From the IMG/VR virus record IMGVR_UViG_3300045988_021923: 42,154 nucleotides of DNA. One strand, 5' to 3'. This document shows, piece by piece, positions 19,499 to 34,117 of the stretch (its first letter is position 1; the number at the start of each line of letters is the position of its first letter). The position numbers were made by a program, and so were the translations under genes. The notes under the pieces are model-generated. The model was given only the letters and a program-made list of their open reading frames with translations, had not been told where the DNA came from and made no database searches. Source of the stretch: a virus.

Positions 19499-19951
19499 TT
19501 ACTCCACGATCATCCAGTCATCAGCCAGCATATCCGCCTGCGATGCCAGCCAGCCGAGCTGCACGCCGGATGTGCCGACAAACGCAAGCGCTTTGTTGCC
19601 GATAGCTTCGTGATTGGCGTTGACCACCTCGTGCGCAGCATTCTCATAACTGATGCGCTCCGCAAGCTCGACATACTGGTTCTTGCCATTCCAACCACGA
19701 CGGCCAATTCTCTCCCCTTTCTTCGCCGCTTCAATGGCAAGGCCAAAGCTCAGGCAGTCTGTTTCCCGATATGCGGCCTCAAACACATCCTTTGGGCTAA
19801 AGCTCTCGTAGCCGTCCGCGTAGCGGACCTTATAGCCCTCATCCACGGGGTCCATGCTTTTGGGAACGGGCTGGTCCTTCTCGTAGACCTTGCCACCCTT
19901 GCGAATAGCAGGGACTGCTTCAATGATTTTCGTGCCAATATACTTTTTCAT
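19499..19951 (-). CDS. DUF2829-domain protein (Tad2-like candidate), 150 aa
   Basis: LSFGLAIEAAKKGERIGRRGWNGKNQYV...GWLASQADMLADDWMIVE matches the DUF2829 signature. AGGAGG SD. Confidence 0.7.
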   Translation of the reverse strand: MKKYIGTKIIEAVPAIRKGGKVYEKDQPVPKSMDPVDEGYKVRYADGYESFSPKDVFEAAYRETDCLSFGLAIEAAKKGERIGRRGWNGKNQYVELAERISYENAAHEVVNANHEAIGNKALAFVGTSGVQLGWLASQADMLADDWMIVE

Positions 19952-20110
19952 TTCGTATAACCTCCTACCATTGTTTTGCTACCAGCCCCCACCCCTTGGC
20001 CTTACATAGCAGACTTTACCCGCCCCAAAGGGCATACACATCTTGCGTGTCCGGCTCTCCACGAGCCAAACATGGTACGCAGCCGCACTTTCAGCAGCGG
20101 TTTTTCGTTT

Positions 20111-20185
20111 TGGCGCAGACGGTAGGATTTGAACCCACGAACCCGAAACTCTGCCCGGAGCTGTTCCCGCCCAGCTTCCGTCTGC
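20111..20185 (-). tRNA. tRNA-like gene with encoded CCA and a non-canonical anticodon arm (anticodon not assignable)
   Basis: On the - strand: GCAGACG/CGTCTGC 7-bp acceptor, AGCT/AGCT D stem, GTGGG-TTCAAAT-CCTAC T arm, G73, CCA. The anticodon region CCGGGCAGAGTTTCGGG only pairs with a G-G mismatch, and its loop CAGAGUU lacks U33 and R37. Confidence 0.5.
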
Positions 20186-20334
20186 AAATGTCCCCTCTGG
20201 GCCACATCGTTGAGAGGTGCGAGGGGTCCTGTCGCATGGCGGGTGCGACCCGCCGCCCCTGATTAGTGGGGTGCATCAAGCGTGCGGCATATAGTCCCCG
20301 GCACTCCGCCGGGGTCAGGAGGAAAGGATGAAAA

Positions 20335-20372
20335 ATGGAGGTGTAGGTTGGTGGCTTCCCCTACATCTCCAT
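20335..20372 (-). terminator. Hairpin terminator ending the early operon (usable in both orientations)
   Basis: ATGGAGGTGTAGG-12 nt-CCTACATCTCCAT (13 bp, one wobble/mismatch) with T-runs on both sides. Confidence 0.6.
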
Positions 20373-20408: not shown

Positions 20409-20591
20409 TTACTGTTTTCCTGCTTTAGCAGCCGCTTTTTTCAACTTTCTTCTTTCTAATCGCTTTCTTTCTGCATCATAATGCTTTTGCGCAAAAATGC
20501 AGTCTGTGCACTCCGCTTTTTTGCATTCAAGGCAAGCCTTTATTTGCTCGGCTGTATCATAACAATTTATCTCATCCTTTCGTTTTCCCAT
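20409..20591 (-). CDS. Small Cys-rich basic protein (60 aa)
   Basis: CYDTAEQIKACLECKKAECTDC motif with a Lys-rich tail. Last gene of the early operon. Confidence 0.6.
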   Translation of the reverse strand: MGKRKDEINCYDTAEQIKACLECKKAECTDCIFAQKHYDAERKRLERRKLKKAAAKAGKQ

Positions 20592-20940
20592 TTAGATTAC
20601 TCACCCCTCCGTATCTGACTTTCCTCAGCTCCGGGTAGCGCTCCGTAAATGGAAGCAGCTCCCGCTTTCCGCCAATAATTTGCGCCATCACCCTGTCCAT
20701 GTGTTCCTGCATCACGTCCGCTGCCGGGTCACCGGAGTTGAGGGCGGGCGTGTACTCCTTTTGGGTCTGCTCCCATGCCTCCGTCAGCCGCATGATGCGC
20801 TCATACCCCCAGCCCTCCGTCTGGTGGAGCGTCATTTGCAGGGTGTCGATCATGTACTGCGAGATCATCCGCTGGGTCGCCTCAACCTTTGCCTGTGCGT
20901 ACTGCTCCGCGTACCGCTGCATCCCTGATGTCTTACCCAT
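20572..20940 (-). CDS. Hypothetical protein (122 aa)
   Basis: Trimmed to ATG 20940, overlapping the upstream stop by 8 nt. Confidence 0.55.
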   Translation of the reverse strand: MGKTSGMQRYAEQYAQAKVEATQRMISQYMIDTLQMTLHQTEGWGYERIMRLTEAWEQTQKEYTPALNSGDPAADVMQEHMDRVMAQIIGGKRELLPFTERYPELRKVRYGGVSNLNGKTKG

Positions 20941-21226
20941 CGGTGCCCTCCCTGCGCTCGCCGTGGCTGCAAAAGTCATCTGCGCACATCGTTTCAAATG
21001 ATTTCATACATTTGCCTTTCGGGCCGTCATCTGCCCCATAAGTATCGGGGTCATCATCCCAGTGTACACAGTCCTCGCACCGCACCACCGGGGCCACGTC
21101 GGCAGCGGGCACTTTTTGCAATTTATCAAGCAACCGGCTTACCCGCATCACGGGCGCCATGCACGCCTCGCTTACCCACTCATTCGCAGCTTTCACCGCC
21201 GTTTCCCGTTTAATGTATTCAGCCAT
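20933..21226 (-). CDS. MAEYIKRE-family hypothetical protein, paralogue 2 (97 aa)
   Basis: ATG 21226 lies in the junction AATGGCTGAATACATTAA. It shares MAEYIKRE and PAADVAP with 21219-21470. Confidence 0.65.
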   Translation of the reverse strand: MAEYIKRETAVKAANEWVSEACMAPVMRVSRLLDKLQKVPAADVAPVVRCEDCVHWDDDPDTYGADDGPKGKCMKSFETMCADDFCSHGERREGTDG

Positions 21227-22797: not shown

Positions 22798-23029
22798 CAC
22801 ATTTCCTCCTCCACCGGCATCCGTTACAGGCCCCCTCATGGGCCAGCGTGTAATTTCCGCATTTCAGGCACAGTTCGTTCCGCAGCGCGTCAATCTCTTT
22901 CGCCCGCGCTTCGATCAAGTCAGCGGCTCCCGCCAGATCGTCGCCCAGCGTGATCGGCGTTTCCCACTCATTTGCCTGCGCCCATTCCGCGTGCTCACGC
23001 AGCGCATTTACGAGGTTTGTATCTCTCAT
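22784..23029 (-). CDS. Hypothetical protein with C-terminal Cys cluster (81 aa)
   Basis: ATGA overlap with the methyltransferase stop. Confidence 0.6.
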   Translation of the reverse strand: MRDTNLVNALREHAEWAQANEWETPITLGDDLAGAADLIEARAKEIDALRNELCLKCGNYTLAHEGACNGCRWRRKCDGKC

Positions 23030-24318
23030 AATTCATCCCCCAATCTCCAATCATCGTCCCGCACCTGAAACGCATCCCCCAACTGCACCGTCTCCGGGTA
23101 ATTGTGCTGTGTGGTTTGGATGGCGTACTTGTCGATTTCGGTTGCATAGTAGGCGGTGATCGCCGCGCCCAGCTTGTCCAGCGCGATATGGCCGCAGCTC
23201 ATGCCGTCGTACATGGAAAGCACTTCCACCGGTTCCTCCGTCAGCCCGGTAAAGTGGCTCATGATATGCGCGATCACATCCACCGTCCAGCCGTTGCCCA
23301 GCATCTTGTAGGCTTGGCTGTTGCTAACCGGGAAAACATACTCCTCCGGCACGGTCTGGAGGTGTTTACATTCCGTCACGGTCAGCTTGCGAATGATGTA
23401 AAATCCGTCTGCCAGTTTAATGGGGTATGTCTTTCCTTTGATGGTAATCCGCCCGCCGTGAACCTCGTAAACTGGGATTTCTTTTCCGCCTGCCGCCTTA
23501 ATTACAAACCGCCCTTTTCCGTCCGGGATAACGGGCACGGCATAAAGCCCGGTTTTTGCCCCTACGCCGCCACCCTGTCCGCACAGGGTTACGCTTTTTG
23601 CGTCCGGGCTGTAAACACGGTATTGCTGGCTGTCAAAAGTCTGGTTCTTTGCGTCGTTCTCAATGGTTCCGATCCTCACCGGCTCCACCAGAACGTTATA
23701 CGGGACGCCCTTGTGGGTGTTCGCCGTCACGCAGGCACTTTTTTCCTGCGTTGCGTCGTGGAAATAATCGAAATCAAAATGGTTCCGCCCGTCCTTGGTT
23801 TCGCGCACCATATAATCCATTTCTTTTTCAGTCAGCGGCTTAATGGCAACAGGTTCCGCCGCACCATTCCGCTGGTGTCTGGAAACCATGTTGTCCGCCG
23901 TGGTTCCGCCGGTTGTGGACAGCAGAGCATACCCTTTTTCTTTCCAGCAGACACCACTTTCCAGAATGTCGCGCAGGAGGATCCCACGGTCCACCGGCTG
24001 CTCCACTGCCACTTGGCTGTATGTGCCGTCCGGGTTTCGTCTGCCCACCCAATACAGGCGCTGGCGGTTTTGTGCGCTCACCAGGGCGCTGTTAATCAGG
24101 ACAGGCTCCACGCCTAACTCCGCCGTGATCTGCGCCCGGATAGCGGGCGACATACTTTTATTGTTTTCGTACAGGAAAAAATCCGGCTGGTATTTATCCC
24201 GTGCAATACGGTAATTTAAGAACAGTTCCCAGCCGATGCCGCTGGCCTCTGTCTCGCGGTTCTTCGTCTGAGCGATGCTCCAATGTGTGCAGGGACTTCC
24301 GCCGATCAATAGTTTCAT
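23026..24318 (-). CDS. DNA (cytosine-5) methyltransferase with permuted motif order IV-X then I-III (430 aa)
   Basis: ATG 24318 (ATGA overlap, GGAGGA SD). Motifs in order: GGSPCTHWS (IV), LYENNKSM (VI), QNRQRLYW (VIII), RKLTVTECKHLQTVP (IX), GNGWTVDVIAHI (X), then LSMYDGMSCG (I), ATEIDKYA (II), LGDAFQV (III). Confidence 0.8.
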   Translation of the reverse strand: MKLLIGGSPCTHWSIAQTKNRETEASGIGWELFLNYRIARDKYQPDFFLYENNKSMSPAIRAQITAELGVEPVLINSALVSAQNRQRLYWVGRRNPDGTYSQVAVEQPVDRGILLRDILESGVCWKEKGYALLSTTGGTTADNMVSRHQRNGAAEPVAIKPLTEKEMDYMVRETKDGRNHFDFDYFHDATQEKSACVTANTHKGVPYNVLVEPVRIGTIENDAKNQTFDSQQYRVYSPDAKSVTLCGQGGGVGAKTGLYAVPVIPDGKGRFVIKAAGGKEIPVYEVHGGRITIKGKTYPIKLADGFYIIRKLTVTECKHLQTVPEEYVFPVSNSQAYKMLGNGWTVDVIAHIMSHFTGLTEEPVEVLSMYDGMSCGHIALDKLGAAITAYYATEIDKYAIQTTQHNYPETVQLGDAFQVRDDDWRLGDEL

Positions 24319-24662
24319 ACGTCCTCCGCTTCCGCAAGCCAGAACGCCCTTCGGCACTCCGAGCATGTGTGCCCTGCGCACTCTGGCACCTTTTTCCCGA
24401 AAATGTGACAGGGATTGATGTATAGACATTCCGCCTGGTCAACATTCGCCTCCGGAAACAGCTTCAAGAACTCGCTCTGCCTGGTTTTTATGGGGTGCTC
24501 CTTCGCCCACTTTTCGGCAATTTCCACCGCCTCCTCCGGGTGGGTTTTTCTCCAGACTGTGCAGGTTTCAAACACGCTAAGCCTTTTCCTGATCTCGCAG
24601 TTGCAGCACTCACAGTTGCACATTCTGCTCAATGTTTTCAAAAACTCCACAGCATCCATCAT
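24315..24662 (-). CDS. Cys-rich hypothetical protein (115 aa)
   Basis: CNCECCNCE and CAGHTCSEC clusters. ATGA overlaps at both ends. Confidence 0.6.
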   Translation of the reverse strand: MMDAVEFLKTLSRMCNCECCNCEIRKRLSVFETCTVWRKTHPEEAVEIAEKWAKEHPIKTRQSEFLKLFPEANVDQAECLYINPCHIFGKKVPECAGHTCSECRRAFWLAEAEDV

Positions 24663-30641: not shown

Positions 30642-30685
30642 AGAAATGCACAACGTTTTTTTCTTCAATTTGTGAGGTTTTGCCA

Positions 30686-31465
30686 ATGGCATTATTTGAA
30701 GCCCAAATTCGCAAATATATAGAAGAAAATTTTAGTGCGCGTGAAAAAGAAATTTTGGCACAAGAACAAAATTTAAAAACCCGGCTTAATAAAAGCCGGG
30801 AGTACAGAATTATGCTGAGAGATTATCAGCAGGAATTGAAAAACCGGGAAAAGAAAATCATTGAAAAAGAAGCAGAATTAAATGAGCGAGAACAAAATCT
30901 TGTGTCCCAAATAAAAGAAAACTTAATCAAGCCTTTATCCGACGAAAAAGGAAAACTTGAACAGCAAATAAAAAAAGCAAAACTTGAATTGTCTGGATAC
31001 CAAAACATGGAATACGAAATTATTGATTGGGTTTCCAGAATGGAAAAGAAAGAAAGCGCGATATTTCAAGAGCTAATTGGCGATGCTCAAAAGTATGACA
31101 ATAATCAAATTTCTATTGACGGTTATGATTTTGAGACATTTGTTGCAAAACTTCTTACCGCCAATCAATTTACAAACGTAGAGGTTACGGCCAAAAGCGG
31201 AGATTACGGGGCCGACGTTCTTGCAAACAAAGACGGAATAAAATATGTCTTTCAATGCAAATATTATTCTAATCAAGTTGGAATTGAAGCTGTCCAGCAA
31301 GTGTATTCTGCAAAAGATTTTTATAACGCTCATGTCGCGATTGTCATTACAAACAGTGTTTTTACAAAAGCAGCTAAAGTATTAGCCAATGAACTAAATG
31401 TTGTTTTGTGGGATTGCGAAAAACTGAACGAGCTAAAAAAGGTTGATGAAAAAAGCGGTGGATAA
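30686..31465 (+). CDS. Coiled-coil protein with C-terminal Mrr_cat-type restriction endonuclease domain (259 aa)
   Basis: ATG 30686 (GTGAGG SD). The N-terminal ~125 aa are heptad-rich (EKEILAQEQNLKTRLNK...). The C-terminus GYDFETFVAKLL...SGDYGADVLANKDGIKYVFQCKYY...IVITNSVFTKAAKVLA matches the Mrr catalytic domain D...(Q/E)xK. Confidence 0.75.
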   Translation: MALFEAQIRKYIEENFSAREKEILAQEQNLKTRLNKSREYRIMLRDYQQELKNREKKIIEKEAELNEREQNLVSQIKENLIKPLSDEKGKLEQQIKKAKLELSGYQNMEYEIIDWVSRMEKKESAIFQELIGDAQKYDNNQISIDGYDFETFVAKLLTANQFTNVEVTAKSGDYGADVLANKDGIKYVFQCKYYSNQVGIEAVQQVYSAKDFYNAHVAIVITNSVFTKAAKVLANELNVVLWDCEKLNELKKVDEKSGG

Positions 31466-32378: not shown

Positions 32379-32813
32379 TTGACTATTCAGGAAATGTGTA
32401 AGGAACGAAAAACTTCTTTGGGGATTACTTCGCAGGAAATAGCAGACCAATCAGGTGTTCCACTATCCACTGTGAACAATTTCTTCGCTCACGCCTCTAA
32501 GTCTCCACCGCTTTATACCGCTGCGCCAATTTGCGCGGTTTTGGGCGTGTCACTGGATGCGTATTTTGGCATTGGAGACCATTTAACCGCAACGGAAGAA
32601 ACCTTGCAGGCGGAAAAGGTCGGTCTGGAAAAGCGCTTATCCAACAAGCGGGAGACGATTGATGTGCAGAATCATACCATCAATGTGATGGAAAAGGGTC
32701 TGCGGATTCGCAACTGCGTGATTTTGGTTATGGGCGTAGCAATCGTCCTGTTGCTGTGCTGGTGCGTATATGTGGATATGCACGCGCTGAATATCGGTTT
32801 TTGGAGGGAATAA
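32379..32813 (+). CDS. XRE-family HTH protein with C-terminal transmembrane anchor (144 aa)
   Basis: TTG 32379 (GGGGAGG SD) or ATG 32394. ITSQEIADQSGVPLSTVNNFF, a coiled segment, then CVILVMGVAIVLLLCWCVYV. The stop overlaps the recombinase start (TAATG). Confidence 0.6.
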   Translation: MTIQEMCKERKTSLGITSQEIADQSGVPLSTVNNFFAHASKSPPLYTAAPICAVLGVSLDAYFGIGDHLTATEETLQAEKVGLEKRLSNKRETIDVQNHTINVMEKGLRIRNCVILVMGVAIVLLLCWCVYVDMHALNIGFWRE

Positions 32814-34117
32814 TGAGAGCTGCGTTATATATCCGCGTGTCCACCGAAGAACAGGCCAAGCAAGGTCTATCCCTCCCGGAACAGAGGGACGCTTTATCAA
32901 AATATGCTGACGCAAACAACATGGAAGTCATCGGCGTATACGAGGATGCCGGTATCAGCGCCCGAAAGCCGTACAAAAAGCGTCCGGCACTATTGCGCTT
33001 ACTTGAAGATTGCAATGCCGGGAAGATTGATGTAATTCTGTTTATCAAACTGGATAGATGGTTCCGCAATGTTTCCGGGTATTATGCAGTGCAAGACCAA
33101 TTAGACAAGTGCGGCGTCAAGTGGCAGGCAACACAAGAGGACTACGAAACGCGCACAGCATCCGGGCGGCTAAAAGTCAACATTATGTTATCTGTGGCGC
33201 AAGACGAAGCTGACCGCACCAGCGAACGAATTAAATTTATCAATGATGGCAAGCGAGCAAAAGGCCAGCCTACTAACGCAAAGGCTCCGCTGGGCCTTGT
33301 GGTAAAAGACCGGCAATATCAAATAGACCCTGATACCGCCGAAGCCGCAAAGGATATGTTTTCCGCATTTATCCGTCTGCGGGGGATTTTGCCCCTAAGA
33401 AAATATATGGCCGCTACGTGGGGAATAAATCGTTCGTATAGCAAATATGTTGGTCTTATCCAAAATCGGTTGTACATCGGAGAAGTATACGGTATTGCCG
33501 ATGCCTGCCCTGCACTAATCAACAAAGACGAATTTACACTCGCAAACGAATTGCTCCAACATCGGAGCCAGCGCGGGGCCAGCGCTTCACCTGACCGCAC
33601 ATATTTGTTTTCTGGCCTGTTGCATTGCCGCGAATGTGGAACCTCGATGCAATCGGAGACCGCGAAGAAAATATATACTTACTACCGCTGCCGAAAGCGT
33701 ATGCTGGATAATTCCGCTTGCCCTCATAATCGCCGTATCCGAGAAGATGTGTTGGAAGAATATTTACTAAGGGAAATCGAACATATCGCTACGGCCTACC
33801 ACGGAAAATACGAAAAAGCAGAAAAAAAGCCTGCCATAGCGGCAGACAAAATTAAACGAAAGATGCAGAAGCTAAAAGAACTTTACCTTGCAGACCTGAT
33901 TGATATTGAGGAATATCGAAAGGATTACGAGGATATGAAACGTAGCCTTGAAATTATGGAAGCGTCTCAGCCGCCTGCATTTGATGTCGGGGCGTTAAAG
34001 TCAGGGCTTGCGGAATATCCACACATGACGAAAGAACAAAAGAAAGGCTTTTGGACACGCACAATCCAGCGCATTGATGCTGATAATGACGGTGCGTTTT
34101 TTGTAACGCCTCGTTAG
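32813..34117 (+). CDS. Large serine recombinase (phage integrase), 434 aa
   Basis: MRAALYIRVSTEEQ...GLSLPEQ resolvase catalytic N-terminus, recombinase domain, and zinc ribbon CRECGTSM...YYRCRKR. Confidence 0.9.
   Translation: MRAALYIRVSTEEQAKQGLSLPEQRDALSKYADANNMEVIGVYEDAGISARKPYKKRPALLRLLEDCNAGKIDVILFIKLDRWFRNVSGYYAVQDQLDKCGVKWQATQEDYETRTASGRLKVNIMLSVAQDEADRTSERIKFINDGKRAKGQPTNAKAPLGLVVKDRQYQIDPDTAEAAKDMFSAFIRLRGILPLRKYMAATWGINRSYSKYVGLIQNRLYIGEVYGIADACPALINKDEFTLANELLQHRSQRGASASPDRTYLFSGLLHCRECGTSMQSETAKKIYTYYRCRKRMLDNSACPHNRRIREDVLEEYLLREIEHIATAYHGKYEKAEKKPAIAADKIKRKMQKLKELYLADLIDIEEYRKDYEDMKRSLEIMEASQPPAFDVGALKSGLAEYPHMTKEQKKGFWTRTIQRIDADNDGAFFVTPR

Follow-up and report, generated by a model that had tools for sequence, protein, structure and literature searches.

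Why would a phage keep an RNA that has the shape of a tRNA and no arm with which to decode, and what is the structured RNA that lies immediately in front of it? Both questions arise from a 457-nucleotide (nt) non-coding stretch in IMG/VR virus record IMGVR_UViG_3300045988_021923, a sequence of 42,154 nt that was analysed at its full length and is termed the window below. An earlier note on this DNA had drawn attention to a tRNA-like RNA on the minus strand and to GC-rich hairpins upstream of it, and had suggested that the whole might form one structured RNA of ~220 nt. We found that positions 20289-20111 (-) are, judging by their sequence and that of their relatives, three abutting structured RNA modules in the leader before the packaging genes: a cloverleaf-like element, a hairpin of the abiF type, that is, of the family of the antitoxin RNA of AbiF, and the tRNA-like RNA. 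What stands of the ~220-nt RNA is ~180 nt of abutting structured modules that include the tRNA-like RNA; the description of the leader merely as GC hairpins had missed the abiF motif. We interpret the feature as a candidate phage RNA antitoxin mimic, which would be new in aiming at AbiF and in sitting among tRNA-like modules.

A toxin-less hairpin of the abiF type

AbiF is a widespread abortive-infection RNase that forms a type III toxin-antitoxin system and has been proposed as the ancestor of Cas13 (PMC12737573; PMC13064643). In bacteria and prophages, the abiF hairpin serves as its antitoxin by binding the dimer of this HEPN RNase and occluding the active site. The abiF motif RNA (RCd22, AbiFr) neutralises AbiF in trans through direct binding (PMC12373285; PMC12737573), and in the structure of PbAbiF determined by cryo-electron microscopy one non-coding RNA (ncRNA) is present per monomer, with the HEPN site blocked by nucleotides of the bulge (PMC12737573).

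In the window, a weak match to RF03085 in a permissive Rfam scan, of the kind that the earlier note had proposed, led to this motif. Specifically, RF03085 aligned to 20226-20191 with 17.7 bits, with no difference from the consensus in the loop and with compensatory changes in both stems. The outer stem pairs CCCCUC (20226-20221) with GAGGGG (20197-20192), the inner stem is CAC/GUG, and the loop CUCUCAACGAU, the bulge GCCCA, and the flanks ACAGGA and ACAUUU complete the hairpin. Hairpins of the same subtype that stand directly upstream of Abi_2 genes themselves reach only 22.6-27.8 bits, compared with the RF03085 gathering score of 37 bits; the threshold therefore excludes true members of the subtype, and the low score of the window hairpin is no argument against its membership.

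A covariance model, R1, was built for the subtype in a manner that was independent of the loop 15-mer: AbiF genes were identified by protein homology, and the upstream regions of the 66 loci were read. An alignment of all 24 AbiF-linked hairpins (A2) had its 3′ stem out of register and was discarded, and the 13 hairpins that were in register (subset A3) were used for R1 instead. R1 matched the window at 20235-20186 over the full model with 65.9 bits, the second-best match reaching 10.6 bits, and scored AbiF-linked copies at 72-74 bits. Moreover, the conserved unpaired positions (ACAGGA, GCACCUCUCAACGAUGUG, CCCAG, and ACAU) are the same in the window hairpin as in the hairpins upstream of AbiF genes. 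The AbiF-linked reference genes are 55-100% identical to one Pfam Abi_2 protein, and the Abi_2 protein located beside a nearly identical hairpin (L037) matched Pfam Abi_2 with E=6e-57 and was homologous to the PbAbiF structure 8VZ6 (E=2.6e-33).

Across 52 distinct sequences, double changes occurred in six of the seven pairs of the outer stem, and 95.8% of cells were paired. For RCd22, stem disruption abolishes neutralisation and compensatory stem changes preserve function (PMC12373285); the covarying outer stem of the phage copies agrees with this need for the structure of the stem and not for its sequence. We are nearly certain that 20235-20186 represents an abiF-type antitoxin RNA motif. No AbiF gene was detected in the window, either by tblastn with two AbiF proteins or by profile hidden Markov model searches of the six-frame open reading frames (ORFs; best E=0.19), and because the window has no Abi_2 homologue we regard the hairpin as a toxin-less member of the RNA family and not as part of an AbiF system. 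A second abiF motif was considered for the upstream element and for a 43-nt element downstream, given GAUG-like strings, and was rejected, as R1 found none with its filters off.

Upstream of AbiF genes, many hairpins (L255-L274) were observed to carry an additional stem-loop inside the conserved loop, for example CCUCUCC-ACGGCAACGU-GUGAUGUG. RF03085 probably under-detects the family because its 37-nt model does not cover hairpins with such loop inserts.

Spread of the hairpin and its junction with downstream RNAs

The loop 15-mer was present in 119 or more viral contigs, and almost every one of these had the full hairpin (ACAGGAC, the 6-bp stem, GCACCUCUCAACGAUGUG, NCCCAG, the return strand, and ACAU), and an AbiF gene followed the hairpin in only ~5 of the viral contigs with this 15-mer. 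Of 100 sources searched, 92 gave one R1 match each, and no tandem repeats were found. At least 51 of 120 loci had packaging-module genes in the 4 kb that follow. The GenBank phage collection yielded two matches only, both from uncultured gut phages. A 15-mer scan of a genome collection returned mostly chance matches among those listed, and host assignment from it is weak; among the matches listed, copies with the same loop that were linked to AbiF came from Lachnospiraceae and Roseburia, and related toxin-less copies came from metagenome-assembled genomes (MAGs) of Oscillospiraceae (Faecousia and Dysosmobacter).

The tRNA-like RNA of the window begins at the nucleotide right after the final position of the abiF model (20186/20185). 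Of the 78 distinct sequences downstream of the motif, 48 had a perfect 7-bp closing helix that began directly after it, whereas control offsets gave 30 at -1 (partly the same helices) and between 1 and 13 at every other offset. The junction between the hairpin and a closed helix is exact, and it is general across the downstream sequences. These sequences comprised true tRNA-Gln and tRNA-Trp genes, several non-canonical classes of tRNA-like RNAs, and other helix-closed RNAs, some of which end in NCCA; in L009, L025, and L041, the hairpin is directly preceded by the 3′ end of a tRNA (…CCA). AT-rich phages differ: there, a terminator of its own follows the toxin-less hairpin, then a small terminase, HNH, or integrase gene, and this terminator is an alternative route to a discrete small RNA.

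Several further RNAs were observed in the same region. A recurrent RNA of ~90 nt (GCGGCAUAGGUGCCCCGUAAGGGGAGACC...GCAAUGCCGC), located at 2331-2422 in L424 and also present in L007, L011, L027, L079, and 14 other loci, has a 7-bp closing helix, is followed by ACCA in some copies, and often stands directly after the abiF hairpin; it had no Rfam match. In L046, a skipping-rope RNA (RF02924; 2342-2436, 45.7 bits, above the gathering score) is located ~100 nt downstream of a toxin-less hairpin, and its position beside the hairpin (L019 phage class) places skipping-rope RNA in the pre-packaging RNA region. A tRNA-like RNA that scored 55 bits as a tRNA directly follows the hairpin in L031, L038, L073, L085, L086, L109, and L199 (the last from a Dysosmobacter MAG), and in this class an 18-nt segment with CCAGGAGGUA, a perfect Shine-Dalgarno-like sequence, replaces the anticodon arm and variable loop. 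The tRNA-like RNAs of L016, L028, L039, L100, and L117 extend to ~115 nt, with a normal acceptor (GCAGAUG/CAUCUGC-ACCA), D and T arms, and a structured insert of 60-70 nt at the place of the anticodon arm, and resemble natural 'tRNA scaffolds'. Additionally, a Thr-like tRNA was present in L006, L008, L035, L060, L111, and L118, for which ARAGORN reported tRNA-Thr(CGU); its anticodon loop has 8 nt (CUUCGUGA) and is closed by A.G, its T loop has C at the place of U55, and it could resemble a frameshift suppressor or be a further tRNA that does not decode. Finally, L048, L065, and L097 had only a 5′ tRNA fragment (acceptor strand and D arm, GCGCAUUGUGGCUUAGUUGGAAGAGCC) between the hairpin and the late leader, which is evidence of deletion and turnover in the slot.

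A tRNA-like RNA that lacks a decoding arm

The acceptor, D, and T arms and the encoded CCA that the earlier note had described on the minus strand are all present in the sequence, which reads GCAGACG-GAA-GCUG-GGCGGGAA-CAGC-U-CCG-GGCAGAGUUU-CGG-GUUC-GUGGG-UUCAAAU-CCUAC-CGUCUGC-G-CCA from 20185 to 20111 (-). As in canonical tRNA (RF00005), there is a 7-bp acceptor stem (GCAGACG, 20185-20179, with CGUCUGC), followed by a discriminator G and a CCA that ends at 20111, a 4-bp D stem (GCUG/CAGC), and a 5-bp T stem, one pair of which is G.U (GUGGG-UUCAAAU-CCUAC). The D loop (GGCGGGAA) contains GG and the T loop has the form UUCRANY, in agreement with the criteria for an elbow. Unlike canonical tRNA, the RNA has one additional nucleotide between the acceptor and D stems and lacks the 5-bp stem and 7-nt anticodon loop with U33 and R37, in place of which are a 3-bp stem (CCG/CGG), a 10-nt loop (GGCAGAGUUU), and a GUUC linker.

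At default settings, ARAGORN found no tRNA and no transfer-messenger RNA (tmRNA) anywhere in the window, and an Rfam scan of the window returned no family at or above its gathering score. Under permissive thresholds, RF00005 aligned to 20185-20114 over the full model length with 27.8 bits (gathering score 29; E=0.0018), and the loss of score was confined to the anticodon region, the acceptor, D, and T arms aligning well. Relaxed ARAGORN (-ps95) called the RNA 'tRNA-Leu(GAG)', with a G.G mismatch, A33, U37, and a 3-nt variable loop. This fold reproduces the CCGGG/UCGGG arm drawn in the earlier note, including its loop without U33 or a purine at position 37; the family of relatives instead supports the 3-bp stem, 10-nt loop, and linker given above. 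The variable arm of bacterial Leu tRNA is normally long. Because of the mismatch, A33, U37, and a variable loop that is too short for Leu, the call is not credible. A scripted search of the tRNA-like RNA for a 5-bp stem and 7-nt loop with U33 and R37 found none, although it recognised its controls, the true tRNA-Gln and tRNA-Trp genes of related loci. The relaxed searches recovered a tRNA shape and no credible decoding arm, and by its sequence the RNA is not one that can serve as a standard decoder, in line with the view taken in the earlier note.

It is extremely improbable, in our estimate, that the RNA is nonetheless an unusual working decoder, such as tRNA-Leu(GAG) or a tRNA whose anticodon loop is expanded. 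The -ps95 call would speak for a decoder, as would the AGAG that is common to three of the seven loop variants of the class and the true tRNAs, and the Thr-like tRNA with an 8-nt loop, in related slots. However, the called arm combines a G.G stem mismatch, A33, and U37 with the lack of a long Leu variable arm, the RNA falls below the Rfam gathering score and is missed by default ARAGORN, and the loop has 8, 10, or 12 nt among relatives.

Other identities were also considered and rejected. A tmRNA or permuted tmRNA was found by ARAGORN neither at default nor at relaxed settings, no Rfam tmRNA family matched, and the tRNA-like RNA differs from tmRNA in its acceptor pair A3-U70, instead of G3.U70, and in having no tag reading frame. 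The permissive Rfam scan of the window matched no Y RNA, theta/hepatitis delta virus ribozyme, or other ribozyme family. Matches to Plastid-ycf2 (on the strand opposite to the tRNA-like RNA), M23, and RAGATH-33 were far below their thresholds and were taken as chance or echoes of the tRNA shape; that to RAGATH-33 at 20553-20669 (-) had 17.8 bits (threshold 120.4, E=0.58), overlaps the ORFs 20409-20591 and 20572-20997, and is probably chance. The variable loop as an antisense guide was likewise rejected, since it has no complement of more than 8 nt, the chance level, in the sense transcripts of the window, and the only longer complement to the loop is one 10-mer on the untranscribed sense.

Single-sequence folding energies were not significant (z of -1.2, -0.6, and -0.6), and structural support for the RNA modules therefore comes from relatives. 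Metagenomes scanned with a D-arm pattern of the tRNA-like RNA yielded 51 contigs, which reduced to 13 distinct sequences of the window class. The 19 pairs of the four helices were paired in 100% of cells in these sequences, versus 33-48% for slid partners, and the check for covariation that the earlier note had proposed revealed compensatory changes in acceptor pair 5:68 and in two T-stem pairs. All 13 relatives have the 3-bp CCG/CGG stem as their anticodon arm; the loop that it closes varies in sequence and measures 8, 10, or 12 nt. In a wider set of 18 members that share the acceptor GCAGAYG/CRUCUGY, the acceptor was paired in 100%, the D stem in 98.6%, and the T stem in 97.8% of cells, compared with 27.8% for the columns of the anticodon stem. 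The tRNA-like RNA is therefore not decaying, since its relatives hold their helices by compensatory change with the same non-canonical arm, and the decayed tRNA that the earlier note had entertained can be set aside. A captured host tRNA fragment, also raised there, or an attP is unlikely, given the full cloverleaf, a serine recombinase ~12 kb away (32756-34117), and no adjacent tRNA-linked integrase. Selection preserves the acceptor/T minihelix, the D/T elbow, and the 3′ CCA, which are the features recognised by tRNA-maturation enzymes, and not a decoding arm, and this conserved class is a clean case of a phage tRNA-shaped RNA kept for a non-decoding purpose.

The commonest relatives (L424 at 2067-2140 and ~37 other metagenome loci, including L425-L430, L446, L454, L464, L468, and L473) have the acceptor GCGGGCG/CGCCUGC with a G3.U70 wobble and A73, no encoded CCA, and no abiF hairpin, while the window copy has A3-U70 and G73. 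The combination of G3.U70 and A73 is the classic identity set of alanyl-tRNA synthetase and is also present in tmRNA. In L424, the RNA-module region is flanked by a regulator-like ORF on one side and the small terminase gene on the other.

The upstream element and the gene setting

The window is the genome of a temperate gut phage. Its genes include a portal, large and small terminase subunits, a serine recombinase, Rha, and a helix-turn-helix repressor-like protein; for recombination it has Sak/YqaJ genes, and it also encodes a C5 methylase and an Mrr-like nuclease. The non-coding RNA region has the last upstream ORF on one side and the Tad2-like gene on the other (Table 1), the latter being followed by the small (matching GP3_package) and large (matching Terminase_3) terminase subunits. 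It was identical at every base in two independent sequencing runs and is therefore not an assembly artefact. Its GC content peaks at 0.65 (20150-20299), compared with 0.37-0.55 in the flanks, and both of the GC hairpins that the earlier note had read upstream of the tRNA-like RNA are present.

Table 1. Features of the RNA region and its immediate neighbourhood in the window.
Feature	Positions	Strand	Basis or content
Tad2-like gene (Thoeris anti-defence 2-like domain)	19499..19951	-	Pfam PF11195, E=2.8e-19
Conserved ~60-nt leader element GCCCUUUGGGGCGGGUAAAGUCUGCUAUGUAAGGCCAAGGGGUGGGGGCUGGUAGCAAAACA	19972..20033	-	Directly upstream of first late gene
Conserved 43-nt element GCGUACCAUGUUUGGCUCGUGGAGAGCCGGACACGCAAGAUGUG	20037..20080	-	Sequence comparison
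Non-decoding tRNA-like RNA, 75 nt including encoded CCA	20111..20185	-	Sequence, Rfam, ARAGORN, relatives
Toxin-less (orphan) abiF-type RNA motif (AbiF antitoxin hairpin)	20186..20235	-	Covariance model R1, Rfam RF03085
Cloverleaf-like upstream element	20230..20289	-	RNAalifold on 13 relatives
GC hairpin CCCCGGC-GGAGU-GCCGGGG	20296..20314	-	Sequence reading
Terminator-like hairpin, end of upstream operon	20331..20370	-	GGAGAUGUAGG, 12-nt loop, CCUACACCUCC, AUUUUU

The cloverleaf-like element consists of P1 (UGCCGCA/UGCGACA, 7 bp), a 2-bp mini-arm, P2 (CCCC-ACUAAUCA-GGGG), and P3 (GGCGGGU-CGC-ACCCGCC, the first of the two GC hairpins). Its 3′ strand abuts the abiF motif and overlaps the unpaired 5′ flank of the latter. 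RNAalifold on 13 relatives of the element supported 20 pairs, six of which had compensatory changes. The second GC hairpin is common only to L048 and the identical contigs L422 and L423 and was not found in the larger families of relatives.

Whether the region could be non-functional debris, that is, a relic of an AbiF locus minus its toxin together with a decaying tRNA in a slot of high turnover, was weighed against these data. Remnants do occur in the slot (the 5′ tRNA fragment described above and similar scrap after the L003 class), the window copy of the upstream element has a weakened P1, and the folding z-scores of single sequences are not significant. Nevertheless, covariation is found in the hairpin, the tRNA-like RNA, and the upstream element, 13 distinct sequences have the same non-canonical 3-bp arm, and phages of very different backgrounds show strict conservation at the unpaired positions of the motif; we consider debris very unlikely.

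The terminator-like hairpin is paired at 10 of 11 positions and is followed by a U run, so that its function as a terminator is a reading of the sequence; it was absent from a simple terminator scan, the loop limit of which (8 nt) is exceeded by the loop of this hairpin. Its presence, and that of the adjacent Tad2-like gene, bear out the position that the earlier note had given to the tRNA-like RNA, and the proposed zone of counter-defence cargo fits. Downstream of the tRNA-like RNA, the 43-nt element, which R1 does not detect as an abiF motif, is 95% identical in the small unrelated contig MT838718 (L002, 76-118), where it stands after a terminator and no tRNA is present, and a variant of it follows a tRNA-Ser-like RNA in L121. 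The late-leader element is kept in L001 (3520-3585), L007, L048, L065, and L097 despite their differing upstream RNA modules, and could be a packaging, regulatory, or translational element.

Elsewhere in the window, we noted a protein with an Mrr-type restriction endonuclease domain near the lysogeny region (30680-31465, +), a C5 cytosine methylase (23026-24429, -), and the large serine recombinase (32756-34117, +), which point to more defence and counter-defence cargo.

A candidate RNA inhibitor of host AbiF

The abiF hairpin is the best counter-defence candidate in the region, and the next gene, Tad2-like, belongs to an anti-defence family. An anti-AbiF role, in which the toxin-less hairpin would neutralise the AbiF of a host, seems to us reasonably likely. 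In the mechanism that we favour, the leader ahead of the packaging genes would be transcribed, RNase P would cut at 20186/20185, and the released hairpin with its ACAUUU tail would bind host AbiF and hold it silent during infection, to the benefit of the phage; for this chain as a whole, we place the chances at about even. The hairpin ends at position -1 of the tRNA-like RNA, and cleavage by RNase P would therefore leave the ACAUUU tail of the natural antitoxin. In evolutionary terms, the hairpin appears to have been inserted into a slot, or junction, that would already be processed.

Several observations weigh against this interpretation. Many of the viral contigs with the hairpin are closely related and were obtained from a single large human-gut dataset, and their counts therefore overstate the number of independent events; and an AbiF-carrying host for the window phage was not identified among the matches listed. 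No sigma-70-type promoter was found for the RNA region, and its position in the leader of the late operon may mean late expression, which could miss the moment for countering abortive infection. In the window, one pair of P1 in the upstream element is a C.A mismatch. RNase P may be dispensable, given that AbiF reportedly processes its ncRNA itself (PMC12737573). Transcription, cleavage, and AbiF binding of the window RNA are steps that we infer from sequence. Moreover, the abiF hairpin is present in seven of 47 metagenome loci with a window-class tRNA-like RNA, always immediately upstream of it, whereas in the other 40 the cloverleaf-like element leads via AAAUAUAU into the tRNA-like RNA with no abiF hairpin between. 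The tRNA-like RNA occurs without the hairpin, and is therefore not there to release it and has a role of its own.

The latter distribution also speaks for a cis-acting leader of the late operon, in which the modules would regulate the late mRNA at the level of read-through, processing, or stability and the hairpin would be bound by a factor other than AbiF, on the models of put-type antitermination RNAs and RNase P-processed leaders. The cloverleaf-like element and the tRNA-like RNA form a constant unit, found in the 40 loci without the hairpin in the same slot, which a regulator-like ORF and the small terminase gene enclose; the modules of the window lie between the terminator-like hairpin and the first late gene, with no terminator after the tRNA-like RNA; and the hairpin of genuine AbiF loci has a cis function as well, that of an attenuator (PMC12373285). 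However, the window hairpin retains all of the unpaired positions that are conserved in AbiF antitoxins, which would be hard to explain without an AbiF partner, and the window encodes no Abi_2-like protein as a binder. The U-tract seen after the hairpin in the AbiF loci inspected is lacking, and in other phages the hairpin with its own terminator makes a separate small RNA. We consider a cis-acting leader unlikely.

A further alternative assigns the activity to the tRNA-like RNA itself, which, as a decoy or sponge that resists cleavage, would occupy a nuclease that targets tRNA, either AbiF or a different anticodon nuclease, perhaps while tethered to the hairpin; a decoy that resists cleavage had been among the suggestions of the earlier note. 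The anticodon loops of tRNAs are cut by many HEPN RNases. The determinants of the L shape are retained and the anticodon loop is replaced, the constant junction with an AbiF-binding hairpin would permit a chimeric RNA, an anti-defence gene of the Tad2 type is adjacent, and Cas13a is cited as cutting tRNA anticodon loops (PMC12373285). Yet AbiF is described as a non-specific single-stranded RNA nuclease (PMC12737573), with in vivo targets that are not established, the loop varies in length (8, 10, or 12 nt) and sequence among close relatives, which is unexpected for a mimic of one loop, and most copies of the tRNA-like RNA come without the hairpin. A nuclease decoy is thus quite unlikely in our view.

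The favoured antitoxin mimic and an active tRNA-like RNA could also be parts of one arrangement, a pre-packaging 'RNA island' in which small RNAs lie between tRNA-like scaffolds and would be excised by the tRNA-maturation enzymes of the host, the tRNA-like RNA being a dedicated active RNA. The members would include the AbiF-antitoxin mimic, the skipping-rope RNA, and the unnamed helix-closed RNAs that end in CCA. By analogy with tmRNA, the relatives with G3.U70 and A73 would be chargeable by alanyl-tRNA synthetase, and in the window the tRNA-like RNA and the hairpin may form a chimeric AbiF trap. We regard this joint reading as doubtful.

If the hairpin does act as an antitoxin mimic, it would constitute a natural anti-defence element made of RNA only and common in human-gut phages, and would offer a simple reagent with which to switch AbiF off. 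Pairings of AbiF and phage would become predictable from sequence, and the arrangement of tRNA-like RNA, hairpin, and tRNA-like RNA would be a natural counterpart of the engineered tRNA-guide RNA (tRNA-gRNA) arrays used for the expression of multiple small RNAs.

Comparison with known systems

Phage-borne homologues of the abiF motif, or a linkage of the motif to tRNA, were not reported in the literature that we searched (Zilberzwige-Tal et al. 2025 being known via reviews). In this literature, the trigger of AbiF by infection was not established, and the sole phage counter-measure was the non-homologous hairpin of the sk1 cos region.

The closest relative of the window hairpin is the abiF motif itself (RF03085; AbiFr/RCd22), with which it shares the 6-bp outer stem, the 3-bp inner stem, the loop CUCUCAACGAU with its conserved CCUCU..GAUG, the single-stranded bulge on the 3′ side, and the conserved flanks ACAGGA and ACAU. 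It differs in that its U-tract is reduced to UUU, with the tRNA-like RNA in its place, in that a structured element and not a promoter lies directly upstream, and in that it is present as a single copy, where RCd22 has two motifs.

Known RNAs in which a tRNA-like part serves as a processing signal or scaffold include the tRNA-like domain of tmRNA, the RNase P-processed C4 RNA of P1 and P7, the mascRNA at the 3′ end of MALAT1, and engineered tRNA-gRNA arrays. As in the window, a non-decoding mimic of the acceptor and T arm adjoins another functional RNA, and maturation enzymes set the ends of the latter; for the tRNA-like RNA of the window, in contrast, cleavage is a prediction.

RNA anti-CRISPRs are solitary CRISPR-repeat mimics borne by phages, as reported by Camara-Wilpert et al. 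2023. They are mentioned as 'Racr RNAs' in PMC12737573. In both cases, the phage would copy the RNA partner of a defence ribonucleoprotein, the AbiF hairpin corresponding to the repeat of a CRISPR RNA (crRNA). RNA anti-CRISPRs, however, subvert the assembly of an RNA-guided effector, whereas the abiF-type RNA is itself the inhibitor of the effector.

In the lactococcal phage sk1, a hairpin in the cos region confers protection from AbiF (Rince et al. 2000; Zilberzwige-Tal et al. 2025, as reviewed in PMC13064643). Like the window hairpin, which lies ahead of the packaging genes, this AbiF inhibitor is a phage hairpin at the packaging (cos) end; it is reported not to resemble the AbiF ncRNA, whereas the window hairpin is a clear homologue of the latter.

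Finally, escape of the Pectobacterium phage PhiTE from ToxIN involves a phage mimic of ToxI, pseudo-ToxI (Blower et al. 2012, as cited in PMC13064643). By analogy, the logic of the window hairpin is most likely the same as that of pseudo-ToxI against ToxIN, as the window phage too has a homologue of a type III abortive-infection antitoxin RNA and no toxin gene; in the mechanism proposed for both, the phage would supply antitoxin and thereby keep the toxin bound. The two differ in the toxin, which is ToxN for pseudo-ToxI and would be the HEPN RNase AbiF for the window, in their architecture, a tandem repeat array versus a single hairpin, and in their origin: pseudo-ToxI is an escape variant selected in the laboratory, while the abiF-type hairpin is native, conserved, and widespread in gut phages.

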